DNA of 64,000 bases from Escherichia phage vB_EcoM_3HA14. The translations under genes were made by a program, and so were the position numbers. Below, in pieces: positions 1-40,230 of this stretch (the first letter of the stretch is position 1; every line of letters begins with the position of its first letter). The notes beneath the pieces were generated by a model, which searched no databases, was not told where the DNA came from, and saw only the letters and a program-made list of their open reading frames with translations. The DNA is taken from the sequence record MN342151.1; one strand, written 5' to 3'.

Positions 1-2
1 AT

Positions 3-2192
3 ATTAAGATTAACGCCAAAACTAAACGTGCTCTTGATAATGAGTACCTCAAGCTTAAGAAGTGTGGTGTTGACACTTATGAAACCTACATGCGAGCTAA
101 AGAAACATCCTTCTGGATGAGTCAGCAAGCTATCAACGGTTGGAAAGCTGATGTAGAACTTATGCAGTTCCACGTTAAAGAACTTGACAAGTTAACTAAC
201 GAGTTGGCTGCTGAGGTTGAACCACACCTTCCACCAACTATTAAGACAAAAGGTAAAGTCACAGGTGAAGAATTTGCCAAGTCTTGGAACGAGTATGTAG
301 ATACATTTGGTCACGTTGATGGTTTGAAAAGGATTACCAAGTACCCTAAGACAAAGTATCGTGAACAGATGCGTGAAGGTGAGTTGAAGCAGTACCCTAT
401 CAAGCCGTATGGTAAGCCAACTACAAAGATTTTTAATGTTGAGAAGCGCAACTGCTACACTCCAACTAACACGGTCACAAAAGAAGAGTACCCTGAAGGT
501 TTTGTAGCAATGAAAGATGCTCGTGCAGTTTGTAATGAACTGAATGAGAAGATTGGCAAGAAGTGTAAAGATTGGAAGCCAGTTAAGACTGTGAAAACTG
601 TGAAGTACTACAACGTTCACGTTGTTAATCACTTTGAGTTAGAGTCTAGTCGCTACACTGGTTTGATTGATGCACCATTCACACCAATTGAGTTTGAAGT
701 TTCACGAATGACTCAGGTAGCTGTGGTGAAGGATTACTTAAAATCCGTTGGCTGGATTCCTGATGATTGGAACTATAAAAAAGATTCTGACGGTCGTCCT
801 ATCAAGGTTTGCAGGTTCAAAGACAACAAAAAGATGATTCGCAAACATCCTAAGTGGGATGAGATGGTTGAACGTTGTGGGTTGAACTATATTGAGCATG
901 AAGGTGTCTACTACATCGAGCATAACTGGTCTGTTAAGAAGTACACAGATGTGCTTGAGCCTTGCTTGATTAGGACTTCACCAAAGCTTACAGAATCTTC
1001 TTATGATACAATCGAAGGTGAGCTTGGACAGAAGATTGCGAAGTACTATACTTTGATGCACCGACGCAGGACTATCGAGAACTCAAAGGATGATGAGAAA
1101 GGTTGGCTGAACCAGATTCGTCCAGATGGTCGTTTGAGTGCAGGTGCAATGGTGTTTGGTACTTCTACTGGACGTATGACTCAGTATGGTATTGTGAACG
1201 TACCTTCTGGTGCTGCTGTGTACGGTGAGCCAATGAGGGCAGTGTGGATTTGTGAAGAGGGAACCAACGTAGTATCTGTTGATATGAACTCTGCACAGCT
1301 TGTACTACTCTGTAACTTCATGGGTGATAAAGACTTCACCAAAGCGGTAACAGAGGGTAAAGAAGAGATTGAGTTTGTCCGTCAAGAGGATGGAAGATAC
1401 TACTGTAAACACTTTGACCAGTATCTGAATCCAGAGATTGACAAGTATCTGCGTTACGACTCTGAAAACGATTTGTACGTAGTTTACTCAGGGACTGATG
1501 CTCACACTCTGAACAGTATCTACTTCAGCCTTAATGATGAGCAAGATATCTTGACTTGTCGTGCTACTCAGGATGAGAATCTTCTTCATGAGATTAGCAA
1601 GGGACGTAAGAAAGCTAAGAATGGTATCTATGCTTTGTTGTTCGGTGCAGGTGATGAGAAGTTTGCTAAAACAATTAAAGCAGCAACTACTCAGGAAGGT
1701 GCATTGACTAAGCAGACTTACTTTGTGCGTTTACCGAAGATTAAGAAACTGTTAGACAACTTGGAAGCTGATTTCAAAGCAACTAAGAAAGCACTTGAAG
1801 AGGTGTTTGGTAAAACTGCTGCAATCTCTAAAGGTGGTTTTGTGAAGGTTGCTGGGGCTTGGCTGTGGTGTAAGTCTCCACACAAACTCTTGAACTATTT
1901 GCTGATGGGTTCAGAAGCACAAGTTCAGAATGAAGCAATCAACCTTGCATGTCGTCGTATGATTGACGAAGGTTTGATGAAGTTGAATGGTCGTAAACCA
2001 GCTATTGGTGCTCGCTTACTCTGTGCTTACCACGATGAAACAAGCTGGGAATGTCCAGAGAGCATGACAGCAGATGTGAAAGCAGTAACTGACTGGTATT
2101 ATGGTCAAGCATCTAAGAACCTTGGGCTAAGAAAAGAGACATTGGTCACAGGTGCAGGGAAAGTTGGTAAATCGTGGCTTGAAGTCCACTAA
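3..2192 (+). CDS. DNA polymerase, family A (5'-truncated; gene continues upstream of window)
   Basis: Reading frame is open from window position 3 with no upstream stop. Pol A-like motifs seen: VSVDMNSAQL (motif A-like), RKKAKNGIYALLFGAG (motif B-like), LLCAYHDE (motif C-like). Confidence 0.85.
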   Translation: MKINAKTKRALDNEYLKLKKCGVDTYETYMRAKETSFWMSQQAINGWKADVELMQFHVKELDKLTNELAAEVEPHLPPTIKTKGKVTGEEFAKSWNEYVDTFGHVDGLKRITKYPKTKYREQMREGELKQYPIKPYGKPTTKIFNVEKRNCYTPTNTVTKEEYPEGFVAMKDARAVCNELNEKIGKKCKDWKPVKTVKTVKYYNVHVVNHFELESSRYTGLIDAPFTPIEFEVSRMTQVAVVKDYLKSVGWIPDDWNYKKDSDGRPIKVCRFKDNKKMIRKHPKWDEMVERCGLNYIEHEGVYYIEHNWSVKKYTDVLEPCLIRTSPKLTESSYDTIEGELGQKIAKYYTLMHRRRTIENSKDDEKGWLNQIRPDGRLSAGAMVFGTSTGRMTQYGIVNVPSGAAVYGEPMRAVWICEEGTNVVSVDMNSAQLVLLCNFMGDKDFTKAVTEGKEEIEFVRQEDGRYYCKHFDQYLNPEIDKYLRYDSENDLYVVYSGTDAHTLNSIYFSLNDEQDILTCRATQDENLLHEISKGRKKAKNGIYALLFGAGDEKFAKTIKAATTQEGALTKQTYFVRLPKIKKLLDNLEADFKATKKALEEVFGKTAAISKGGFVKVAGAWLWCKSPHKLLNYLLMGSEAQVQNEAINLACRRMIDEGLMKLNGRKPAIGARLLCAYHDETSWECPESMTADVKAVTDWYYGQASKNLGLRKETLVTGAGKVGKSWLEVH

Positions 2193-10199: not shown

Positions 10200-12578
10200 T
10201 TATGCAGTTCTTACCCAAGCCATTAATTTAATGTAAGTGTTCTGAACACTGAATGCTGCACCAGAACCAGTTGCACCAGTGTTACCACTAAATGTGTGGT
10301 TGTGAGCACCAATACCTACACCGTGACCGTGAGCACCTACCCAACTTGTTCTCCCTGTCCAAGTTCTTGATGCGTAGAAGTTGACAGGTGTACCATAAGT
10401 GAATTGTGAACCAGTATAACCTCTAGAGGCTTGTGAACCTGAGATAGCGAATGCCCCACTTGCTGTATAGAAGCTGTTTGCATCACTTCTGAAGAAACCA
10501 AAGTCACCAGAGATTTCCATGTTACCTCTGTCATGGTCGTGAGCACCTTGAGCGTCTGTGTACTTAGTACCATAATCAAATGTACTTGTTGTTCCAGAGA
10601 AGCTATGAGTGTGCGCAGGAATATGACCAACACTTAGAGCCACCGTATCAGAACCACCAAGACCTTTCACATCGGAACCATTTGCAGAACCAATCCTAAT
10701 AGTTCTGTTTGCACCTTCTGTCAAGTAAGTCCAAGTAGTGCCTGGGAAAGCTGTATTTGGGTTGACATTAGAAGCAAAGAACGTCACAATACCAACTGGA
10801 TACACTTTCTTAAGGTCTGTAGAATCAGTTACCGCAGAGGCAATACGTTGGTCTACTTCAGCCTTGGTGTAAGCACCAAGTTCAGAGGGTGTAGGTTTGT
10901 CTTGGTCTGTGTAGATTTTAGCCCAAACCTCTTCAAAACCAAATCCATCCCTTGCTGTTCTATAATAGATTCCAGTATTCTTGTAGTTAAATTTAAACTG
11001 TGCAGTCGGTGTAGATGTACCAACTCCAAGGTGCATTTGGTAAACTAAGTGAGTAGACCCACCAGTTGAATTTGTAACACTGTACAAACCTGTTTTTGAA
11101 TTCCAAGCAATACCTGTTGCATCACCTACTTCTGTTCCCGTTCCAGATACACCAGACAACATATATCTTGAGTTTGCAGCAGATTGTGTGTAGTATCTTG
11201 AGTCAAAGTTTGACCAATCTGTAGGCTGAACCTGACCAGTTACTGATACGCTTCTGTTGAACATGAAAGTGTCAGCAATTTCTAACTGTACACCACCACT
11301 TGAATAGTTGTACAGGAACAGAGAATTTGGCCTACTGCCTTCACCGTTACCAATATACCAACGTCTGTTGCCGTCTGCATTAGCGCCAACAATATACAGT
11401 GATGAATTAGCTGTCCCACTTTGCAATGTGAAAGCCGCATCTGTAGTAACAATAGTTTGTGGGTTAGTAAAAACGTTTGCAGCATTAGTTCTTGCAAGCA
11501 CGTTCGTTAAAGAGCTTGGAACATATCTTGTATCAAAGTTTGCGAAGTCACTTGGTTTTACCTGACCAGATACATTAATAGCTTTGTTAAATGAAAACTC
11601 TGTAGCAATTTTCAAGTTAACATTTGTCATCTGGTTTGCTAAAACAATCTCAGACTGCGTACCATCTGGTTGACCCACATACCAAGCACCTGTCCCAGCA
11701 CTGTTGTAACCACGCATAAATAATGCAGCATTCTCTGAAGCCGCTCTTAAGTTAAGTGCATTACTATCTGCAATAACATAAGTCTTCCCGTTGAAGTTGT
11801 TAACCCCAACAAAGTTATTACTTGCATTAAGTCTTGCAAATCTCTGGTCAGCAGCAGTCTGTGTAAAGAATCTTGCATCAAGGTTGTTCCAGTTATTAGG
11901 CTGAACCTGACCATTGATTTCAAAGTTCTTGTCAACACTAACAGAGTTTGTACCAAGAGTCAACGTAGCACCTTTGCTGTTAACTAATGTAACATCAGTC
12001 CCAGAAGTCAAGTTACCAACTGTGAATCTCAAAGCATTATTTGAGTCTCTTGCTTCAATATATGCTCCACCATCTGGTAAGATACTTTTAAGTGTCAAAC
12101 CAACACCGTTGATATTAATGATTTGTCTTGCCAAGAAAGTATTTTCAGTTTCCTTCATAGCATATCTTGCATCATTTTCAGTGTTAGTTCTCATACCTAA
12201 TTCATTAGGAGATGGTTTATTAAGTGTGTGATAAACTGTTGCAGACCTTGTGGCATCATTTACAGTTAATCTTAAAGCACTTGCATTAATTCTAAAGGTC
12301 TTGGCAGTGTCACCGAGAATAACTTCAGAAGAACCTGTTGGGTCTAATAAGTCTTTTCCACCGTATCTTAATTTAACGATGCCAAGATTTCCTGTCATAT
12401 CCCCACCAGTTAGTTGTAAGAATCTTTCTAGTTTGAAAGAGGCAAGGAAATTTGCATAGGTCATTTTACGGTCTTCATCACCTAGCATATCAGACCTTTT
12501 GATAATTCTTAGGTGAAGTAAATCTTCTGAGCGAACTGTATCAATACTGTTTAGCTCACTTAGCTTATATTCAGCCAT
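10200..12578 (-). CDS. tail fiber protein (792 aa)
   Basis: Large S/T/N/G-rich protein with repetitive N-rich segments and C-terminal His-x-His boxes (HIPAHTHSF, HDHD, HGHGVGIGAHNHTF); first gene of the tail module. Confidence 0.7.
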   Translation of the reverse strand: MAEYKLSELNSIDTVRSEDLLHLRIIKRSDMLGDEDRKMTYANFLASFKLERFLQLTGGDMTGNLGIVKLRYGGKDLLDPTGSSEVILGDTAKTFRINASALRLTVNDATRSATVYHTLNKPSPNELGMRTNTENDARYAMKETENTFLARQIININGVGLTLKSILPDGGAYIEARDSNNALRFTVGNLTSGTDVTLVNSKGATLTLGTNSVSVDKNFEINGQVQPNNWNNLDARFFTQTAADQRFARLNASNNFVGVNNFNGKTYVIADSNALNLRAASENAALFMRGYNSAGTGAWYVGQPDGTQSEIVLANQMTNVNLKIATEFSFNKAINVSGQVKPSDFANFDTRYVPSSLTNVLARTNAANVFTNPQTIVTTDAAFTLQSGTANSSLYIVGANADGNRRWYIGNGEGSRPNSLFLYNYSSGGVQLEIADTFMFNRSVSVTGQVQPTDWSNFDSRYYTQSAANSRYMLSGVSGTGTEVGDATGIAWNSKTGLYSVTNSTGGSTHLVYQMHLGVGTSTPTAQFKFNYKNTGIYYRTARDGFGFEEVWAKIYTDQDKPTPSELGAYTKAEVDQRIASAVTDSTDLKKVYPVGIVTFFASNVNPNTAFPGTTWTYLTEGANRTIRIGSANGSDVKGLGGSDTVALSVGHIPAHTHSFSGTTSTFDYGTKYTDAQGAHDHDRGNMEISGDFGFFRSDANSFYTASGAFAISGSQASRGYTGSQFTYGTPVNFYASRTWTGRTSWVGAHGHGVGIGAHNHTFSGNTGATGSGAAFSVQNTYIKLMAWVRTA

Positions 12579-23019: not shown

Positions 23020-24372
23020 TTATTCGTAAGCCACTGTGCCTTTCAAGTCAACATCCAAGATAGCCCCTGCAAGAATACCGTGGAAGGTAACGTCTTTCAG
23101 GATACGTGCTTTCTTATCTGCCAATGCAACTTGTGAGGCTTTAGGAACAGTAACGGTGTAAGTTGACAAAAAGTTTCTGTTAACTGCTCGCTGAAGAGAT
23201 GTTTCAATGACCTGACGAATACGGGTAATACCAGTATCATCATAAGTAATCTTACCACCCTTCTGATTAATTAGCAAGTCTCTCAGAGATGTTTTCAAAT
23301 CAGATTCAAGCCAATCAACACCACGTACAATATCAATCCATTCACCACCAGAAGTGATACCTCTACGCACTACAGGAACCCCACCATCGAGGTCAATGAA
23401 GTTACAGCTACGGGTATCCAAAGCTGACTTCTGAATGCTTGTCAGTGGTCTCTGGTTAGCAGGTTGTAGAGATGCTGCAACACCAGTTAATTGAGCGTTA
23501 CCCCAAGCAATTGAACCTGCATCATATGGAGCACCATATGCGATGTAAGCCATTTCTGGGTAGTCATACTCGGCTGTGTGATGCCACAAGCAAACTGTAC
23601 GAGTGTACTTGCTCTTAGCTAACTGTGCCGGAACATCTGTTGCAGAGGTCAAATCAGTGCCTTGCAGAGCCTTAACGTCAGCATTAGCTGTGAAGAAAAT
23701 CTTCTTACGAGCCTGAATCTCTGAAGCCATTGCCAAGACAAACTGTTGAGTTCTGTCTTCTGCTGAGATGAAGTACCAATCTGTTGAATATGTCTCAATG
23801 GATGCCAGAGCAGCGGAAGCCGTGTCAGCAGTTGTTGCTGCAATAGACGTTGTAGGTGTAATAGATGTTACTTTTACGAAGTCATTATCACCAGCTTTAG
23901 TAATAATCATCGTCGCAGAAGCACCAGTACCTGTTACACTAGCATTAACACCATCTTTAATTGTTGGGCTTGCTTCAATCTGTGATTTAAACTCATTCAA
24001 GACAATAAGTGCTGTGTCGTTTTCTTTTGCAGTGTACTGGAATGGCTGAGAAACACCACCACCGATAGCAACTGTCAATGAATATTCACTTCCTTCAGCC
24101 ACTGTGTCAGGAATAGAAACAGTATATTGCATAGTTCTTCTACCAATATACAGTTGAGTTACTTTTGGAGTTTGGCTCCATAGCTGTTTTGCAGCTTTAT
24201 ACGCAGCAGTACTTTCATCAAAGTCTTCAGCTACTTCTGTTAATGAAGTATAACCACGGATTCTTTCTTCAAAGTTATCTGTTGAAGCAAGGAATAATGG
24301 TAAACCAAAACCTTCTCTTGTAGTTCCTGCTGTGTTCAATGTAATATCTACATTAACAATTGGATTCCACAT
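23020..24372 (-). CDS. tail sheath protein (450 aa)
   Basis: Size and position upstream of tube, chaperones and tape measure indicate a contractile tail. Confidence 0.6.
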   Translation of the reverse strand: MWNPIVNVDITLNTAGTTREGFGLPLFLASTDNFEERIRGYTSLTEVAEDFDESTAAYKAAKQLWSQTPKVTQLYIGRRTMQYTVSIPDTVAEGSEYSLTVAIGGGVSQPFQYTAKENDTALIVLNEFKSQIEASPTIKDGVNASVTGTGASATMIITKAGDNDFVKVTSITPTTSIAATTADTASAALASIETYSTDWYFISAEDRTQQFVLAMASEIQARKKIFFTANADVKALQGTDLTSATDVPAQLAKSKYTRTVCLWHHTAEYDYPEMAYIAYGAPYDAGSIAWGNAQLTGVAASLQPANQRPLTSIQKSALDTRSCNFIDLDGGVPVVRRGITSGGEWIDIVRGVDWLESDLKTSLRDLLINQKGGKITYDDTGITRIRQVIETSLQRAVNRNFLSTYTVTVPKASQVALADKKARILKDVTFHGILAGAILDVDLKGTVAYE

Positions 24373-33541: not shown

Positions 33542-33617
33542 TGGAGTATCGGAAGGGACTCGAACCCTCATAAACCTGTTTTGCAGACAGGCACATAACC
33601 ATTTCTGACACCGACAC
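33542..33617 (-). tRNA. tRNA-Cys (GCA)
   Basis: Manual fold: acceptor GTGTCGG/CCGATAC, anticodon arm CCTGT-CTGCAAA-ACAGG, T-arm GAGGG-TTCGAGT-CCCTT, CCA encoded. Confidence 0.75.
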
Positions 33618-33623
33618 ATAATT

Positions 33624-33716
33624 TGGAGGAAGATACCAGACTTGAACTGGTACGCCGATTTCTCGGTTACTGGCAGTTTAGCAAACTGCTCCCTTACCTT
33701 TTAGGGTTAATCTTCC
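33624..33716 (-). tRNA. tRNA-Ser (GCT), long variable arm
   Basis: 93 nt; acceptor GGAAGAT/ATCTTCC perfect; anticodon loop TTGCTAA; long variable arm; T-loop TTCAAGT. Confidence 0.75.
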
Positions 33717-33717
33717 A

Positions 33718-34452
33718 TTATTTGTTCAGAGCTTCTTTCATCTCTGGAGTTGCGATAGTATCAATCACACCAGTTTTACATGAATCATCAAACCAGCTTG
33801 GTAGAACATTCGCAAGGAAACCATTAATATTTGTTTTCAGATATTCTGCAATCAGTGCTGCTTCATCTGCAATCATCTGAGTTACTTCGTTAGCATATGC
33901 AGTAATCTTTGCAATACCCTCATTAATCGCTGTAACGGCCTGTGTAGCGAGTTCAGAGATTGTATCTAGTCCTTGGTCGATTGCATCTTGCAAATCGCTT
34001 AGAACGCCATTTACAGCGTCTATGGAGGTATTAATCAAATCCATCGCTTTATTACCGTACTCGGTAGCTACGCCCATGATACCGCTAAACGGTGTACATC
34101 CAACCTGTTCACCTGCTGCTCCCATAACGTTAGAGTAACCTTTAGCTACTTGCATACGTTGTGAAAACTCATCTACAGACTTTTGTCCATACTCAGTAAG
34201 TGTACTTGTCGTTGAAGTTGTACTTCCAAGGCTTGTTGTGAAGCTTCCTAATAAGGCTGTTGTCAGTCCAGCAGCAACTAAAATCTGTTGTGTAGCTGGG
34301 TCTGTTACAGAACTAATTGAGTTAACTAATGATTGAGAGGCAGCTATAGTACCACCAAGAACTGCTGCACCAGTAATAAGAGGGTTTGAAAAACCATTAC
34401 CAGTTTTAAGGAGATTAAAAATCTCTTTACTTTGTTCTGTCATCTCTTTCAT
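33718..34452 (-). CDS. hypothetical Ala/Thr/Ser-rich protein (244 aa) within tRNA cluster
   Basis: ORF-track start (GTG at 34515) would run through a tRNA-Phe; ATG at 34452 has a GGTG RBS and avoids the tRNA. Confidence 0.5.
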   Translation of the reverse strand: MKEMTEQSKEIFNLLKTGNGFSNPLITGAAVLGGTIAASQSLVNSISSVTDPATQQILVAAGLTTALLGSFTTSLGSTTSTTSTLTEYGQKSVDEFSQRMQVAKGYSNVMGAAGEQVGCTPFSGIMGVATEYGNKAMDLINTSIDAVNGVLSDLQDAIDQGLDTISELATQAVTAINEGIAKITAYANEVTQMIADEAALIAEYLKTNINGFLANVLPSWFDDSCKTGVIDTIATPEMKEALNK

Positions 34453-34468
34453 TATGCACCTATAAAGT

Positions 34469-34545
34469 TGGTAGCCCATCGGGATTTGAACCCTGTTCTC
34501 ATGTTTTTCAGACACGCGCTTTAACCATATAAGCTAATTGAGCTA
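34469..34545 (-). tRNA. tRNA-Phe (GAA), atypical acceptor/D spacing
   Basis: Anticodon arm CGTGT-CTGAAAA-ACATG; D-arm GCTT-ATATGGTTA-AAGC; T-loop TTCAAAT; acceptor pairs only with a 1-2 nt offset and T-stem is weak. Confidence 0.55.
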
Positions 34546-34551
34546 TTAAAT

Positions 34552-34628
34552 TGGGGTGACCTACGGGAATCGAACCCGTATAGACCATGTTCACAGCATG
34601 GGTCATTATCCATTTATGATAAGGCCAC
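34552..34628 (-). tRNA. tRNA-His (GTG)
   Basis: Anticodon arm CCATG-CTGTGAA-CATGG; D-arm TCAT/ATGA; acceptor GTGGCCT/AGGTCAC; CCA encoded. Confidence 0.75.
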
Positions 34629-34659
34629 ATTTAAGGACTCTCGTAAGAATCCTTAGAAG

Positions 34660-34735
34660 TGGCAGCAGTATAAGGATTTGAACCTTAATCTTTCAGCTTC
34701 AGAGGCTGGAGCATTGCCAGTTATGCTATACTGCT
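34660..34735 (-). tRNA. tRNA-Gln (CTG)
   Basis: 76 nt; anticodon loop CTCTGAA; D-arm GCAT/ATGC; acceptor AGCAGTA/TACTGCT perfect. Confidence 0.7.
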
Positions 34736-34741
34736 AATATT

Positions 34742-34820
34742 TGGTACTCCATATCGGATTCGAACCGATACATAACACAGATTTTAAATCTGGCCTCTCT
34801 GCCAATTGGAGTAATGGAGC
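34742..34820 (-). tRNA. tRNA with Leu anticodon (TAA) but short variable arm
   Basis: Anticodon loop TTTAAAA; D-loop AATTGGCAGAG (Leu-like); variable region about 7 nt; discriminator A; T-arm ATCGG-TTCGAAT-CCGAT. Confidence 0.6.
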
Positions 34821-34822
34821 AT

Positions 34823-34898
34823 TGGCGGGGGATGATGGAATTGAACCATCTTCTTCGATTTCAAAGACCGAGGTTTTAACCTTGTAAACTAATCCCCT
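34823..34898 (-). tRNA. tRNA-Gln (TTG)
   Basis: Anticodon arm TCGGT-CTTTGAA-ATCGA; D-arm GTTT/AAAC; position 1:72 mismatched. Confidence 0.65.
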
Positions 34899-35124
34899 AA
34901 CGAACTCTTGAAAGAATATATGCGTTATTGCAAGTATCCTTATTTTCAGGTAGTGATGTTTCGAAGATAACTTGCTTAAGTTCTAATCCAGCAAAGTTAT
35001 AAACAACCTTTCTAACTTCTAACGGGTCACATTGCCAACCAACCGCTATAAAGAAAGTATCTCCAAATCTACCTGTTTCAATCTTGTGGTCATCTTTATG
35101 TTTTTCAACTATGAGTTTATACAT
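34897..35124 (-). CDS. hypothetical protein (75 aa) between tRNA genes
   Basis: ORF fills the gap between two tRNAs. Confidence 0.35.
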   Translation of the reverse strand: MYKLIVEKHKDDHKIETGRFGDTFFIAVGWQCDPLEVRKVVYNFAGLELKQVIFETSLPENKDTCNNAYILSRVR

Positions 35125-35142
35125 AATGTTACCTATTAAATT

Positions 35143-35219
35143 TGGTGCAGAATAGAGGATTCGAACCCCTAACTAACAACTTCGTAGGTTGCTGCTCTGT
35201 CCATTTGAACTAATTCTGC
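35143..35219 (-). tRNA. tRNA-Arg (ACG)
   Basis: Acceptor GCAGAAT/ATTCTGC perfect; anticodon arm GCAAC-CTACGAA-GTTGT. Confidence 0.75.
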
Positions 35220-35381
35220 AATATCCTTTTGAGATTCCTGTCTAGCTCTCTTCTTATCTCTTCTGAGAAAGCGTTTACGATGGTCTGTACGCCATTTGTA
35301 ATAATCTTCTTCACCATCATGCGCTGCACAGCAGCCACAACTTGCAATTTCAACTTTACCATGTCTACCATAAGGCTTCAT
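35169..35381 (-). CDS. hypothetical Cys-rich basic protein (70 aa)
   Basis: ORF whose 3' 51 nt overlap tRNA-Arg; CxC plus basic KRxRR-like segment. May be real or chance. Confidence 0.3.
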   Translation of the reverse strand: MKPYGRHGKVEIASCGCCAAHDGEEDYYKWRTDHRKRFLRRDKKRARQESQKDIAELVQMDRAATYEVVS

Positions 35382-35397
35382 AGGAATCTCCTAAAAT

Positions 35398-35475
35398 TGG
35401 TGTTCCAAGACGGATTCGAACCGTCACTAATACAAGGTTTGAGCTTGCATCCTCTGCCAATTGGGATACTGGAAC
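35398..35475 (-). tRNA. tRNA with Leu anticodon (CAA) but short variable arm
   Basis: Anticodon arm GCAAG-CTCAAAC-CTTGT; D-loop AATTGGCAGAG; variable region about 6 nt; discriminator A. Confidence 0.6.
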
Positions 35476-35476
35476 T

Positions 35477-35551
35477 TGGTACTCGCTGAAGGACTTGAAC
35501 CTTCTTCACCAACTTGTAAGGATGGGGCTTTACCATATAAACTAAGCGAGC
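35477..35551 (-). tRNA. tRNA-Val (TAC)
   Basis: Anticodon loop CTTACAA; T-arm GAAGG-TTCAAGT-CCTTC; separated by 1 nt from the neighbouring tRNA. Confidence 0.7.
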
Positions 35552-35646
35552 TTTGAAGAGGTCTGAAGCTGTGCCGCTAACTCAACTCCGTGGAATTTGT
35601 TACGGTCTTCAGTTGACTCAAGCGGTCTTTCACTTGACCTCAAAAT

Positions 35647-35723
35647 TGGTGCTGCTCACAGGACTCGAACCTGCATCTCCATCCTTACAAGGGATGTGCA
35701 ATAGCCAATTATACGAAAGCAGC
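35647..35723 (-). tRNA. tRNA-Thr (TGT)
   Basis: Anticodon arm CATCC-CTTGTAA-GGATG perfect; T-loop TTCGAGT. Confidence 0.75.
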
Positions 35724-35729
35724 ATTATT

Positions 35730-35804
35730 TGGAGCATCCAGAGGGAATCGAACCCTCAACCTCAGTTTGGAAGACTGTAATTTTCCCATTTAAACTATGG
35801 ATGC
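35730..35804 (-). tRNA. tRNA-Gly (TCC)
   Basis: Acceptor GCATCCA/TGGATGC perfect; anticodon loop CTTCCAA. Confidence 0.75.
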
Positions 35805-35810
35805 ACTAAT

Positions 35811-35886
35811 TGGTGGAGAAGCAGGGAATTGAACCCTGTACTTAAGTTTGCAAAACTTATGTTTTAACCATGTAAACTACATCCCC
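35811..35886 (-). tRNA. tRNA-Ala (TGC)
   Basis: Anticodon arm TAAGT-TTTGCAA-ACTTA perfect; D-arm GTTT/AAAC; G3:U70 wobble (Ala identity element) present. Confidence 0.8.
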
Positions 35887-35892
35887 ATTGTT

Positions 35893-35968
35893 TGGTACAG
35901 GTGGAGGGAATTGAACCCATCGTCTTACTGATTAAGAGTCAGCCGCATAACCATTTTGCTACACCTGC
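35893..35968 (-). tRNA. tRNA-Lys (CTT)
   Basis: Anticodon arm GCTGA-CTCTTAA-TCAGT; T-stem only 3 bp (GGG/CCC). Confidence 0.6.
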
Positions 35969-35975
35969 ATTAATT

Positions 35976-36052
35976 TGGTACACCTAGAGAGATTCGAACT
36001 CACACTGAGCAGATTCTAAGTCTGCTGCCTCTTCCAATTGGGCTATAGGTGC
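35976..36052 (-). tRNA. tRNA with Leu anticodon (TAG) but short variable arm
   Basis: 77 nt; anticodon arm GCAGA-CTTAGAA-TCTGC perfect; D-loop AATTGGAAGAG; 5-nt variable loop; discriminator A. Confidence 0.65.
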
Positions 36053-36305
36053 ATTAAATCTTTGTAGAGAACTGCTAAGACGCCAAAGCAACAATGGTAT
36101 CAAATGCCTTAACAATTCTCTAAAAAGACCTATTGGCCTCTGCATAGTCTTGCTTAATCCGGTGACTAGAACCTTTGGAGAGCTTGATACTATCTCTTCT
36201 CCGTGACACCTACTAGGTGCTTTACCAGTGCCGTGTACGCCAATACACGAAGAGGAAACCTGAAACACTTGCTCGAACAAATAGTCTCAGCTTTAAATCT
36301 TATTA

Positions 36306-36395
36306 GGCGGTAGATAAAGGAGTCGAACCCTCACCGTATCTCTACAATGGCAACTGTTTTCAAGACAGTTTGGCTTCCATTAGCCGCTACCTACC
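36306..36395 (-). tRNA. tRNA-Ser (TGA), long variable arm
   Basis: About 90 nt; anticodon arm ACTGT-CTTGAAA-ACAGT; long variable arm; 3' CC encoded but not the terminal A. Confidence 0.7.
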
Positions 36396-36408
36396 CCTAA
36401 TAAGACTT

Positions 36409-36491
36409 TGGCATGGGACGGAGGATTCGAACCCCTTTGAGTAAGTTTTGGAGGCTTACGCACATGCCTTAGTGTCTTAACATCGTCCCAT
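36409..36491 (-). tRNA. atypical tRNA-like gene, possibly tRNA-Trp (CCA)
   Basis: Perfect 7-bp acceptor ATGGGAC/GTCCCAT and T-arm. Anticodon stem GTAAG/CTTAC encloses a 9-nt loop CCTCCAAAA (CCA anticodon if the closing pair is unpaired); D region about 8 nt longer than canonical. Confidence 0.5.
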
Positions 36492-36656
36492 ACTATATTT
36501 CGAAGCTTACCCTGTTATCTCAACACTGTCAAGCTTCTTCTCAGATTATTTACATGTTCTGGAAAACATGAGATACAGACCACCTCCTTATGAGATTGAC
36601 TCTTTCAAGTCAATGCGGAGACCCATAAAGGTCGTCATAGTAATCTGCTAACTAAT

Positions 36657-36724
36657 TGGCAGTCAAGGTAGGAGTCGAACCTACTTACTATTAAAGGGAG
36701 CTACCCTTCAGCAACTATCCGACT
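36657..36724 (-). tRNA. tRNA-like element (truncated or non-canonical)
   Basis: Canonical T-arm GTAGG-TTCGACT-CCTAC and CCA end, but only about 68 nt to the best acceptor match; no convincing anticodon arm. Confidence 0.35.
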
Positions 36725-36785
36725 TTCGTTTATCTCTTAACGCGTATCCAAGATAACTTACTCGTGTTGTCTTGACCATTAAAAT

Positions 36786-36862
36786 TGGCACACCCTACAG
36801 GATTCGAACCTGTAACTGACGGTTTAGAAGACCGTTGCTCTATCCGTTTGAACTAAGGGTGC
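36786..36862 (-). tRNA. tRNA-Arg (TCT)
   Basis: Anticodon arm ACGGT-CTTCTAA-ACCGT perfect; T-arm ACAGG-TTCGAAT-CCTGT. Confidence 0.75.
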
Positions 36863-37066
36863 ATTATCTTTAAAGGCTCTCTTAGAAAACCCTTAAAGAT
36901 GCCCACTTTATTAATCATACCGTGGGCTAGTACGCCAAATTCTTTAACAGGGAGTTGGAATACCCTGCTGGTGTTTAGCCTATTAAGCTACTGCCAGAAA
37001 AACATTATCGTTTGCATTTATTTTTAAGTTTTTAAAATAGACGCTACGCTAACGAAAACTAAGGTT

Positions 37067-37095
37067 ATCTTAAAGTGGTCACATCTAAATGTCAA
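37067..37095 (-). promoter_or_regulatory. possible internal sigma70-like promoter in tRNA cluster spacer
   Basis: On - strand: TTGACA (37090-37095), 17-nt spacer, TAAGAT (37067-37072). Confidence 0.3.
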
Positions 37096-37109
37096 CAACT
37101 TTATGAAAT

Positions 37110-37187
37110 TGGTTGTAGGTGAGGGTATCGAACCCTCTTCTAACGGTTATCAGCCGTTTGCATTACCATTTATGCTAACCCACAATT
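37110..37187 (-). tRNA. tRNA-Ile (GAT)
   Basis: Anticodon arm AACGG-CTGATAA-CCGTT perfect; D-arm GCAT/ATGC. Confidence 0.75.
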
Positions 37188-37189
37188 GG

Positions 37190-37266
37190 AGGTTCAGGTG
37201 GGAATCGAACCCACATTCATAGGGCTTATGAAACCCTTGCATTACCTTATCTGCGACTGAACCATT
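37190..37266 (-). tRNA. tRNA-Met (CAT), elongator-like
   Basis: Acceptor GGTTCAG/CTGAACC perfect; anticodon arm AGGGT-TTCATAA-GCCCT; 1:72 paired, so not initiator-like. Confidence 0.7.
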
Positions 37267-37344
37267 ATAAGTTGCCCCTTTGTAGAGAACTGATTGAGTG
37301 GGTGTTTCCAGCCGCGCATGTGTTCTTCAGTTAAGGGGCGAATT

Positions 37345-37421
37345 TGGTAGAAGTGGAGGGATTCGAACCCGTCGCCTGTCAGATTAAAAGTCTGCCGCAT
37401 CACCATTCTGCTACACTTCCA
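37345..37421 (-). tRNA. tRNA-Lys (TTT)
   Basis: Anticodon region GCAGA-CTTTTAA-TCTGA; weak T-stem like the CTT isoacceptor. Confidence 0.65.
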
Positions 37422-37606
37422 TTAAATCATCTTTGCAGTAACCTACGCAAACCTTGCTAAAGGGTTTGTAGAGTCATCTCTTATAAGCTAATCTAGAATC
37501 ATGCTCAAGAGACTCTTCGGCACTCATGGGACGACTGGTTAGCTCCATAAGTCACTGCAAAGAGGATTACCAGACCGTATTTATCTTAAGTGCTTCCATT
37601 ACACCA

Positions 37607-37643
37607 ACACGCCGTAACGTGTGAAGGAATCGAACCTTCGCCT
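37607..37643 (-). ncRNA. orphan T-arm-like hairpin with adjacent stem-loop (tRNA-like module without acceptor or anticodon)
   Basis: Sense strand GAAGG-TTCGATT-CCTTC followed by ACACG-TTACGG-CGTGT; no pairing acceptor found within 100 nt. Confidence 0.3.
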
Positions 37644-37844
37644 TTTCTTTACCAGAGAAATAGATTGTTTATTGTTTGCTGTAAACGGTCTTCTGTAAAA
37701 TTGTTGGAACCAGACCAAGTTTTAAATTTTTCAAATTAAATTGGCTTGAAATATTAAAATTGCTTGCTGTATTTGGTCTTCTGCTCCTTTAAAGAATACT
37801 CGTAAGAACTCTTTAAGGGAGGGGCTAAAAAGCCCTCTCAAATT

Positions 37845-37921
37845 TGGCGGTTACGAAGGGATTCGAACCCTCATCATCCTCCGTGACAGGGAGGTATTTT
37901 GACCAGTTAAACTACATAACC
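37845..37921 (-). tRNA. tRNA-Asp (GTC)
   Basis: Anticodon arm CCTCC-CTGTCAC-GGAGG perfect; T-arm GAGGG-TTCGAAT-CCCTT. Confidence 0.75.
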
Positions 37922-37927
37922 TTTATT

Positions 37928-38015
37928 TGGTGCGCCGTGAAGGAGTCGAACCTCCCGAGTCATAATGACAAGTGATTTACAGTCACCACCGCTTCCATCT
38001 ACGGGATAACGACGC
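37928..38015 (-). tRNA. tRNA-Tyr (GTA), long variable arm
   Basis: 88 nt; anticodon arm GGTGA-CTGTAAA-TCACT; variable-arm hairpin TGTCA..TGACT. Confidence 0.7.
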
Positions 38016-38083
38016 ATTTTATTCTATTCAGGCTAAGGACTTGCACCTTACAAATCGGTGAGCAATCGCTTCTCTCCCAAATC

Positions 38084-38161
38084 TTGGCGGTTAGTCAGGG
38101 ATTCGAACCCTGTACCATTCGGTTAACAGCCGACCGCACATGCCTTATGTGCTTCCTAACC
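38084..38161 (-). tRNA. tRNA-Asn (GTT)
   Basis: Anticodon loop CTGTTAA; D-arm GCAC/GTGC; T-arm CAGGG-TTCGAAT-CCCTG. Confidence 0.7.
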
Positions 38162-38245
38162 ATGTTAGTATTACCAGACCGTATCTTTTCATTTTTTGCC
38201 TATAAAAAATTTTAAGTGTTTGCTGTAAACGGCCTTCTGTAAATT

Positions 38246-38322
38246 TGGAGGCGGGTGTAGGAGTCGAACCTACCGATAACATGCTAATGAGACATGTGAG
38301 ACACCCTTTCTCTATACCCGCA
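38246..38322 (-). tRNA. tRNA with CAT anticodon (Met or Ile2), 1:72 mismatch
   Basis: Anticodon arm CATGT-CTCATTA-GCATG; first acceptor pair unpaired (T:C). Confidence 0.6.
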
Positions 38323-38409
38323 ATTCTTAATGACCAGACCAAATCTTTTTTGGATTTCTATGCGCGAAATTGAAAAGTTTGTTTGCTGTAATTGGTCTTC
38401 TGTCAAAAC

Positions 38410-38487
38410 TGGCATTCCCGAAGGGACTTGAACCCTCAAACCACACCTTGAAAGGGTGTTGACTTTACCTAATTTGTCTACGGGAAT
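38410..38487 (-). tRNA. tRNA-Glu (TTC)
   Basis: Acceptor ATTCCCG/CGGGAAT perfect; anticodon arm ACACC-CTTTCAA-GGTGT perfect. Confidence 0.75.
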
Positions 38488-38493
38488 ATAATT

Positions 38494-38573
38494 TGGTCTC
38501 CGTTGAAGGATTTGAACCTTCGACCCCTTGCTCCCAAAGCAAGTGCTGCTAAACCAAACTGAGCTAAACGGAG
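38494..38573 (-). tRNA. tRNA-Pro (TGG)
   Basis: Acceptor CTCCGTT/AACGGAG perfect; anticodon arm CTTGC-TTTGGGA-GCAAG perfect. Confidence 0.75.
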
Positions 38574-38738: not shown

Positions 38739-40154
38739 TTACCAATCGTAGCGTTCAACCATTACTGCTTTGAGCATTACGCTGATAGGGTCAAACTTCT
38801 CACCACCAAGCAAAGCTTTTAAAGTGGCTGGAGAGAAACCAGATACCATTGCTACACCGTTATCCTTTACAGACACTTCGCAAGTACCGTTACGGTTTGC
38901 TAAGTACCAGAATACCAGTTGTGGCATCTCATATCCAGCTTTCTTGTACTTTTCTTGAATTGCTTCAAAGTTAGTACGACCATCTGCTCCATCAACCTGA
39001 TTAAACTGCATATCAGAGAAGATGATAAGCTTACTAGGCATCTCTTTCTGAGTCAAGTTGTTTTTAACACCAATCTCAAGGATTCTTGCAAAAGCAGCTT
39101 GTAGGTCAGTTGAACCATACTCTACATGACTCTTCACTTGACGTAAGCGAGTCTGTAAATCACCACTCAATGTGATGAAGTGAGGTCTGCTAGAGTAAAC
39201 CATCAATTCATCTTTAAAGCAACCTGTATTACGTTCTGAAACGTACAGGGCTAAAGATACACCAATGTCTAGCGCTGTAACAGAACCATGTCGCTCCCAA
39301 GTCATAGATGAAGATACATCTGCCATGCACAGAATGTTCTCACCCTCTTTCATCCAGTTTGGTAAAGCTTTCCACTGCTCATTTGCAACGGTTGCATTAC
39401 CATAACCGACTGACTTTGTAATGTCATAAGGGTAGACTGCACCAGCATTAATCTTTGTCTCACCTTTAGTCAGTGCTGCAATGTATGCTGCATAACGCTC
39501 ACCATCTTTACGACTGAAGAGTTTTTGATAACGTGCAGCAGCCAGTGAAGGAAGCTTGCTGTAATCAATCTCTCCGAACTCATTTGCTGAAATCTTTTGT
39601 TCAACAGTATCAGACAGTGCTGACAGAAGAACTCGATACTGCTTCTCTGAAAGATTTGCAAACTTACAGAAACGACGAACAAAACGCATGTGTCGTGATT
39701 TTACTCGTGGTAACCATTTTGCTGCCAGAGCCGATGTTGCAGGGTCTAACAGTGCAGCTTCTAAATGCTTGAAAGCATCTGTTTCGTAACGTGTACCAAC
39801 AAAGATTTTAAAGTCGTCATAACGACCTAAATCAGAAATCTTGTCCATGATACGTAACACTTGGAACTCATCAAGAATCCCGTCAGAGATTGCTTTAGTA
39901 AGAGTATAACGGAACGCTTTACGCTCACCCATACCTTCTCGTGCATCTCGCATATGTAACAGGATTCGAACTGCTACATCAATATCTTCTCGCATTGCCT
40001 TGTAAAACAAGTTTGGAAGAACTTCTACATTTGTTCTGCTTGAACCAGCAGCTTTGTAGAAATCTACCAGTGCAGACATTGAAGAGGTGTGGTTAACAGC
40101 ACCGTTTTCAGTTAAACCTGCATGTAAATGCGAGTGCTTAAATAATTCGCTCAT
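38739..40154 (-). CDS. vWA-domain protein (471 aa), possibly TROVE/Ro60-like
   Basis: C-terminal half has vWA hallmarks: hydrophobic strand then DVSSSM (MIDAS DxSxS) and LIIFSDMQFN; N-terminal about 270 aa helical. Directly upstream of and co-oriented with the tRNA cluster. Confidence 0.55.
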   Translation of the reverse strand: MSELFKHSHLHAGLTENGAVNHTSSMSALVDFYKAAGSSRTNVEVLPNLFYKAMREDIDVAVRILLHMRDAREGMGERKAFRYTLTKAISDGILDEFQVLRIMDKISDLGRYDDFKIFVGTRYETDAFKHLEAALLDPATSALAAKWLPRVKSRHMRFVRRFCKFANLSEKQYRVLLSALSDTVEQKISANEFGEIDYSKLPSLAAARYQKLFSRKDGERYAAYIAALTKGETKINAGAVYPYDITKSVGYGNATVANEQWKALPNWMKEGENILCMADVSSSMTWERHGSVTALDIGVSLALYVSERNTGCFKDELMVYSSRPHFITLSGDLQTRLRQVKSHVEYGSTDLQAAFARILEIGVKNNLTQKEMPSKLIIFSDMQFNQVDGADGRTNFEAIQEKYKKAGYEMPQLVFWYLANRNGTCEVSVKDNGVAMVSGFSPATLKALLGGEKFDPISVMLKAVMVERYDW

Positions 40155-40230
40155 ATTAATTCTCTCTCGTTAGAATGTTTTGGTGAGACAGACTCTAACG
40201 TTTGATTTAGAACCTGTCAACACCTTTTTA

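Follow-up and report, generated by a model that had tools for sequence, protein, structure and literature searches.

An unannotated, conserved tRNA-Trp-like gene with an expanded connector in the tRNA array of Felix O1-like phages

Canonical transfer RNAs (tRNAs) connect the acceptor stem to the D-arm through 2 nucleotides (nt) and have an anticodon loop of 7 nt, a rule given in the accessible part of a review of noncanonical tRNAs (PMC7609411). The tRNA-Sec, tRNA-Pyl and allo-tRNA classes have an 8/4 or 9/3 acceptor/T geometry (PMC5389517; accessible part of PMC7609411). Felix O1-like phages are classic typing and therapy phages, and their tRNA sets are under quantitative study for codon usage and defence evasion; in earlier work on Felix O1 and wV8, tRNAscan-SE and ARAGORN were used with default settings. 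Here we describe an element in a stretch of 64,000 nt from Escherichia phage vB_EcoM_3HA14 (MN342151.1), hereafter called the window. The element, which we call form A, is an 83-nt cloverleaf gene on the minus strand, running from 36491 to 36409 with its encoded CCA included, in a tRNA array that occupies 33542-38573 on the same strand. The 601 bases around it are 100% identical to Shigella phage Sf17 (Ounavirinae, Mooglevirus). From comparative sequence analysis we read form A as a real, conserved, unannotated and structurally unusual tRNA-Trp gene, and we put the probability that selection has maintained a true tRNA-Trp(CCA) gene here, noncanonical in its core, at roughly 65%. If it is counted, Felix O1-like phages most likely have a tRNA for each of the 20 amino acids, as compared with the 19 reported.

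An earlier, sequence-only reading of the window had placed a tRNA-like gene of this length at 36409-36491, and the coordinates were exact. On the minus strand, the first half of the element parses as ATGGGAC / GATGTTAAG / ACAC-TAAGGCAT-GTGC / GTAAG-CCTCCAAAA-CTTAC and the second half as TCAA / AGGGG-TTCGAAT-CCTCC / GTCCCAT / G / CCA. The 5' strand of the acceptor stem (ATGGGAC, positions 1-7; 36485-36491) forms seven of seven Watson-Crick pairs with GTCCCAT (36413-36419), and the segment at 36409-36419 also holds the invariant discriminator G73 and the encoded CCA. The T-arm AGGGG-TTCGAAT-CCTCC (36420-36436) consists of four pairs, including one G.U, and an A49.C65 opposition that never varies, with T54 T55 C56 and A58 conserved; the acceptor stem is thus as perfect as had been claimed, and the T-arm is not. 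The 7-base pair (bp) acceptor stem, the discriminator base, the 7-nt T-loop and the D-loop G18 G19 are those of a canonical tRNA, and the variable region is 4-5 nt. The connector GATGTTAAG (36476-36484) is 9 nt in place of the canonical two bases (U8, N9) and is invariant in 14 of 14 aligned distinct copies; this linker, GAUGUUAAG, is unchanged also in every further variant listed, with AT added in the Pectobacterium phages to give 11 nt. The D region had been described as about 8 nt too long, and between the acceptor and anticodon stems it is indeed over-length (26 nt vs. about 19 nt), with an excess of 7 nt (9 nt in Pectobacterium phages). In the D-arm (36460-36475), the stem ACAC/GTGC around the loop TAAGGCAT has three Watson-Crick pairs and an invariant A10.C25, and G18 G19 are invariant.

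The anticodon arm (36441-36459) is a covarying GTAAG/CTTAC stem, positions 26-30 with 40-44, around CCTCCAAAA, and the 9-nt formal loop (CCUCCAAAA) was found as described in the sequence-only reading. At position 31.39, 13 copies have C.A and one (phage Arno162) has C.C, never a Watson-Crick pair; the five Watson-Crick pairs of a canonical anticodon stem with a 7-nt loop are reached only by counting 26-44. With 31.39 left unpaired, the anticodon is CCA (36449-36451), which reads UGG, as had been proposed. The motif T-CCA-A is invariant in every copy, with U33 at 36452 and A37 at 36448. Judged as a canonical cloverleaf, the element falls short in two defining features, its connector being longer than 2 nt and the family model failing to detect it, and its 31-39 pair is borderline.

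Distinct copies were gathered from GenBank phages, IMG/VR and metagenomes; a scan of viral contigs with a 14-mer from the linker gave 127 matches, 110 of which, mostly chance matches, were discarded. A MAFFT alignment that included the most divergent copy (contig L186, metagenome record JACCDR010813160.1, 1339-1422) mis-registered the D-stem, and a model-guided alignment of 14 distinct copies was used instead. RNAalifold predicted the same cloverleaf de novo from 11 copies. Across the 14 copies, 98.9% of the cells were paired, compared to 32-52% with the partners slid, and none of 500 shuffles reached any observed measure. Double compensatory changes occur at nine of 19 pairs with 18 extra pair types, and all four stems covary, including the short D-stem. 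In the anticodon stem, four of five pairs show double compensatory changes, with up to four pair types per pair. The D-stem pair 12-23 is UA in nine copies, AU in four and GC in one; pair 13-22 is CG (12 copies), UA (one) or UG (one); T-stem pair 50-64 is GC in 12 and UA in two. Acceptor pair 2-71 was found as UA (12 copies) and CG (one), and pair 1-72 as AU, GU and GC in eight, four and two copies, respectively. In L186 the D and anticodon stems are fully compensated. The Sf17 and HY02 types differ at 12 positions: ten make up five compensated pairs, and two lie at T-loop positions 57 and 59, to which variation of the T-loop (TTCGAAT or TTCAACT) is confined. Bases invariant in all copies are U33, C34 C35 A36, A37, the D-loop GG, T54 T55 C56, A58, G73 and the linker. 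The Pectobacterium phages are distant, and there BLAST matches cover the element alone, between diverged flanks. The single-sequence folding energy is unremarkable (z = -1.0); the support for the element is comparative.

A plus-strand reading and a long D-hairpin were tried and set aside. The plus strand lacks a T-loop, a GG D-loop and a CCA end, and the G.U intermediates seen at five different pairs, compatible with the minus strand only, would turn into C.A mismatches. The D-hairpin, AUGUUA / UAA-GG-CAU, found by eye, leaves the A-U exchanges at 12-23 unpaired, and the Arno162 copy breaks one of its pairs. An alternative within the accepted cloverleaf is a pairing of G8 with C65, which RNAalifold predicts and which would give an 8/4 acceptor/T geometry; both bases are invariant, so covariation is uninformative on this point.

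By homology and identity features, we assign the element to the tRNA-Trp lineage. It has the anticodon CCA, discriminator G73 and, in the eight of 14 copies mentioned above, A1-U72. G73 and A1-U72 have an identity role for bacterial tryptophanyl-tRNA synthetase (TrpRS). The sequence taken for the host E. coli/Shigella tRNA-Trp (trpT) is annotated as tRNA-Trp, in one copy, in each of 5426 complete E. coli genomes. It shares A1-U72, G73 and the loop CUCCAAA with form A at 63-69% identity; unlike form A it folds as a canonical cloverleaf of 76 nt, with U8-A9, U31-A39 and G10-C25 in the D-stem. Homology is also seen with the tRNA-Trp of a phage further removed within the Ounavirinae, Erwinia phage phiEa21-4 (Kolesnikvirus). 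Like form A, this tRNA has CUCCAAA, the unpaired C31.A39, A1-U72, G73 and the T-loop TTCGAAT, and 15 nt (CGGCCTCCAAAACCG) are identical to the HY02-type form-A anticodon arm. Unlike form A it is 76 nt long, has a 2-nt connector and a normal D-arm, is annotated, and scores 56.8 bits with the Rfam tRNA model RF00005. It lies between tRNA-Gly and tRNA-Thr, which are 6 nt apart in Sf17, and not between tRNA-Arg and tRNA-Ser. A 31.39 mismatch was seen in nine of 1445 called tRNAs (redundant contig set); given this rarity, the shared C31.A39 marks common descent. A covariance model built on form A (R1) scored the window copy at 109.1 bits and members at 85-114 bits; the best non-member was the phiEa21-4 tRNA-Trp at 38.9 bits, by a small margin over the next matches, tRNA-Arg(acg) genes at 38.1 bits. 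The phiEa21-4 gene (contig L171, 24578-24653) ends in TCA rather than CCA. In form A, the CCA is encoded in 13 of 14 copies and reads CTA in phage Tribble (contig L004, about position 790); the 3' CCA of these phage tRNA-Trp genes is therefore not always encoded. Phage phiEa21-4 also encodes its own tRNA nucleotidyltransferase, gp79 (contig L172, 7090-8358).

Every lineage examined has one Trp(CCA) gene. In the window, ARAGORN called 26 tRNAs, which cover 19 amino acids but not Trp; the Sf17 record annotates the same 26, and the remainder of the Sf17 genome (about 27 kilobases, kb) contains no tRNA at all. The claim that form A completes the 20-amino-acid set therefore held, and the other tRNA-Trp gene that the sequence-only reading had suggested looking for was found neither in the window by ARAGORN nor in the rest of Sf17. 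Form A is the sole Trp gene in Sf17 (Mooglevirus), in Felixounavirus and in Pectobacterium phages; Arno162 has 24 tRNAs for 19 amino acids plus form A. Phage phiEa21-4 has the canonical Trp gene and no form A. In wV8-like Felixounavirus and in Suspvirus phages, the same slot with the same flanks is taken by another tRNA-Trp(cca), which we call form B. Of the arrays that contain the slot, 29 carry just form A and two just form B; no array combines the two forms or lacks both. Replacement of this mutually exclusive kind amounts to complementation in nature and argues that form A serves as tRNA-Trp.

Form B shares with form A the CCA anticodon, A1-U72, G73, an encoded CCA, a noncanonical D region and a score below the Rfam threshold. 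It differs from form A (63-66% identity) in being 71 nt long, in having a reduced D-arm instead of an expanded connector, and in its normal U31-A39 and 7-nt loop. It occurs in 23 Felix O1-like records, where it is annotated as tRNA-Trp, tRNA-OTHER or pseudo. In a wV8-type phage (contig L146) form B lies at 11394-11464, directly followed by a 134-amino acid (aa) open reading frame (ORF) at 11479-11883 with sub-threshold HNH matches; the corresponding ORF of phiSUSP1 is annotated in GenBank as an HNH endonuclease. The exchange of form A for form B with its HNH-like ORF looks like a homing-endonuclease-linked replacement of one tRNA allele by another. A form-B-like sequence of about 78% identity was also seen in Vibrio phages.

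The enlarged anticodon loop had led the sequence-only reading to consider a frameshift suppressor. Frameshift-suppressor tRNAs of the sufD and sufJ type carry an extra base inserted in the anticodon loop, and D-arm mutations of E. coli tRNA-Trp promote UGA reading (the Hirsh suppressor, G24A). A recoding tRNA, either a +1 suppressor or a Hirsh-type tRNA-Trp that also reads UGA, would agree with the formal 9-nt loop and with the abnormal D regions of form A and form B alike. Form A and the frameshift suppressors both have more than seven unpaired loop bases, but the central CUCCAAA of form A is the wild-type loop of the host tRNA-Trp with no base inserted, flanked by the non-pairing 31.39, and the canonical phiEa21-4 gene has the same C31.A39. 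TGA behaves as an ordinary stop, with no sign of recoding: it closes 21 of 78 long ORFs, and reading through it would in most cases add 0-22 codons. The only two larger gains follow short ORFs that lie over longer ones on the opposite strand and may be spurious. No split genes or merging of long ORFs on TGA readthrough were seen, and no systematic search for +1 frameshift sites was made. We consider recoding as the function of form A quite improbable, with low-level UGA readthrough conceivable. The best reading of the element is a functional but architecturally odd tRNA-Trp rather than a frameshift suppressor or a pseudogene.

We also examined how form A behaves with tRNA finders. The sequence-only reading had suggested ARAGORN with relaxed settings as a check, but the program gave no tRNA-Trp call on the native element at default, -ps, -ps50 or intron mode, with only spurious calls at -ps50. 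A Rfam scan of the 6.5-kb array (E<=10) gave no RF00005 match to the element (gathering threshold, 29 bits). In-silico deletion of four or six bases anywhere within positions 9-18 resulted in an ARAGORN call of tRNA-Trp(cca), which indicates that the 7-nt connector insertion, and not the loop, is the single obstacle to detection. The D-stem register that ARAGORN gave to these deletion variants, GACA/TGTG, is contradicted by the HY02-type change, which would break the pairing. In all 26 neighbouring tRNAs the connectors are 2-3 nt and the anticodon loops 7 nt, and the array tRNAs also encode CCA. Within the Felix O1 group, 235 phage records contain form A, and 60 of them were sampled; none of the 60 has a tRNA feature at its position, and judging by this sample the gene appears to be unannotated in about 235 GenBank genomes. 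The gene is not mentioned in the wV8 and Sf14 papers or in the paper on phage tRNAs and evasion, and we found no description elsewhere.

Scanned alone against Rfam, the element matched tRNA-Sec only, at 18.5 bits vs. a threshold of 47. Form A resembles tRNA-Sec, tRNA-Pyl and allo-tRNAs in tRNA-Sec being the best match in the Rfam clan and in a six-layer anticodon stem that includes the covarying 26-44 pair, and it would share an 8/4 geometry with them if G8 pairs with C65. It differs from them in having no long variable arm, no 6-bp D-stem, and CCA rather than UCA or CUA. A tRNA-Sec identity was rejected on the anticodon CCA, the variable region of 4-5 nt, the 3-bp D-stem and the low score; the same short variable region sets form A apart from the allo-tRNAs, which have a long variable arm and a tRNA-Ser/Sec-like body.

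The preferred reading, a tRNA-Trp(CCA) gene with a noncanonical core, is carried by structure, conservation, the Trp anticodon with its identity bases, homology and the single Trp gene per genome; expression, processing, charging and tertiary pairing are what we infer from it. Form A would probably be transcribed together with the minus-strand tRNA array, cut by RNase P at A1 and trimmed at the 3' end to the encoded CCA. Host TrpRS would charge it via the anticodon CCA, G73 and, in most copies, A1-U72, and the charged tRNA would decode UGG during infection, supplementing the single-copy tRNA-Trp of the host. The unpaired C31.A39 would be an inheritance from the tRNA-Trp lineage of the phage subfamily. 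Normally, bases 8 and 14 of a tRNA form a pair atop the D-stem, and the chain returns through the groove at base 9 to reach base 10. In form A, the connector bases A9 U10 G11 (36481-36483) may pair with the final three D-loop bases CAU (36464-36466), immediately 5' of the 3' strand of the D-stem. This 3-bp helix would extend the D-helix and replace the single U8.A14 contact, with the remaining UUAAG serving as a longer return strand along the groove to the start of the D-stem. The proposed partners were 100% pairable in 11 copies; where CAU varies (UGU in Arno162, UAU in L186) pairing is kept in every case.

A more far-reaching proposal joins structure and origin: a translationally active tRNA with an undescribed core, in which the 3-bp helix and a 5-6-nt return strand make a small elbow/core pseudoknot, selected for evasion. 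As to that origin, the form may have been selected for invisibility to a host or competitor nuclease, or to the homing endonuclease whose target is the normal core or gene of tRNA-Trp. We offer the two parts together only tentatively and find the combination somewhat doubtful.

Several observations weigh against the tRNA-Trp reading of form A. The element is missed by every curated detector. U8 is missing, and the accessible part of the review of noncanonical tRNAs describes no functional class with a 9-nt or otherwise expanded connector (PMC7609411). Changes in the AUG:CAU pairing are one-sided and wobble-compatible only, one-sided changes being the only kind available because the linker is invariant. 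Three invariant A.C oppositions (10.25, 31.39 and 49.65) weaken the stems. The L186 acceptor stem has two adjacent mismatches, U2.U71 and C3.U70, which could mean that this copy is decaying, that the short contig is misassembled or that such irregularity is tolerated; the Arno162 copy has a bulged base in the same acceptor strand. The alignment represents only about 5-6 lineages or sequence types, and shuffle controls overstate significance for related sequences. Despite the few lineages, the covariation pattern is qualitatively unambiguous.

The failed detection, the A.C oppositions and the L186 mismatches are also what would be expected of a tRNA-Trp pseudogene in decay, one that a 7-nt insertion and mismatches have disabled and that persists only by linkage to the array; in Felixounavirus the spacers on either side show about the same conservation as the element, which fits such hitchhiking. 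Decay does not account for the compensatory substitutions on both sides of nine stem pairs, for differences between lineages that fall nearly all within pairs, or for the invariance of the functional loop and elbow bases. The Pectobacterium phages have kept the element next to diverged flanks, and form A was never found alongside another tRNA-Trp in any genome examined. We regard decay as extremely improbable.

A further alternative is that form A is a tRNA-shaped RNA derived from tRNA-Trp and kept for a non-decoding job, which might be that of a decoy or antidote against a host defence nuclease that targets tRNAs, or of a ligand for a phage RNA-binding protein; the invariant linker would then be a protein-recognition site. 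The sequence invariance of the linker exceeds the needs of a spacer, the core is noncanonical and without U8, and the array is headed by a DUF2828/DUF7788 protein annotated as RNA-binding. According to the accessible parts of three reports, phage tRNAs can neutralise tRNA-cleaving defences (PMC10264068, PMC11464382, PMC11555353); those known anti-defence phage tRNAs are however functional tRNAs, so this explanation overlaps with that of a working tRNA-Trp. The anticodon, U33, A37, G73 and the CCA end are conserved, which is not required of a pure decoy. Another tRNA-Trp fills the slot when form A is missing, with exactly one Trp gene per genome. A tRNA-Trp-specific nuclease of enterobacteria was not found in the accessible parts of the literature on phage tRNAs and defence. 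A non-decoding role appears unlikely.

Form A is a concrete case of real tRNAs being systematically missed by covariance-model finders. If form A is functional, RNase P, TrpRS, EF-Tu and the ribosome would tolerate an acceptor-D connector of 9-11 nt, which would be useful for tRNA engineering. With two odd tRNA-Trp alleles in one slot, one of them linked to an HNH-like ORF, the locus may also provide a tractable case of tRNA allele replacement driven by a homing endonuclease.

In the window, form A lies between tRNA-Arg and tRNA-Ser, 13 nt upstream of tRNA-Ser(UGA), with a sigma-70-like site about 150 nt upstream of it (36666-36637). UGG makes up 1.1% of codons. Window positions 1-60 map about 1.2 kb off the position predicted by the Sf17 record NC_042076.1, from which it follows that the source genome differs from the deposited Sf17 by an insertion or deletion between the tRNA array and the DNA polymerase region.

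Other features were noted on the minus strand of the array. About 55 nt upstream of form A, at 36546-36590, a strong Shine-Dalgarno sequence, TAAGGAGGT, is followed by a 7-codon mini-ORF (ATGTTTTCCAGAACATGTAAATAA) that contains a perfect 6-bp hairpin, CATGTT/AACATG, and that HY02 and wV8-type phages have kept as well. A second uncalled tRNA-like element, about 128 nt long, separates tRNA-Arg(tct) from form A at 36648-36776, GGTCAAG ... GTAGG-TTCGACT-CCTAC CTTGACT G CCA, with a 7-bp acceptor stem (G1.U72), a T-arm, an encoded CCA and an interior of about 100 nt (minimum free energy fold z = -1.2). It is missing from HY02-type Felixounavirus, and the corresponding position in phiEa21-4 is occupied by a counterpart about 180 nt long (L171, about 23877-24060). 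The tRNA-Arg(tct) slot of the wV8-type phage (L146, 11163-11241) holds an odd variant with a TCT loop (...GCGGT-CTTCTAA-ACCGC...) and an apparently very short D region; its long extra segment contains CGAGTAAGT, in common with the long element of Sf17. This variant scores 31.7 bits with the Rfam tRNA model and is not called by ARAGORN.

Positions 36863-37095, between tRNA-Ile and tRNA-Arg(tct), form a noncoding block of about 230 nt that is conserved and is a candidate structured small RNA. It has its own sigma-70-like promoter, TTGACA-17-TAAGAT, and hairpins with compensatory changes across genera: CAGGG-TATTCCAACT-CCCTG in Sf17, TGAGG-...-CCTCA in HY02 and TAGGG-...-CCCTA in phiEa21-4. The block overlaps weak Rfam matches to tmRNA_permuted (36.5 bits vs. 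a threshold of 47) and alpha_tmRNA. At 37615-37689, a Rfam tRNA match of 28.8 bits (threshold 29) was not called by ARAGORN; it includes a T-arm-like GAAGG-TTCGATT-CCTTC, and an obvious acceptor stem was not seen. The protein at the head of the array (471 aa; 38742-40157, minus strand), annotated as RNA-binding, gives matches of 150 bits to DUF7788 and 95 bits to DUF2828, and a search of solved structures found no relative by sequence. Its homologs with 31-40% identity on unrelated large phage contigs likewise adjoin tRNA genes.

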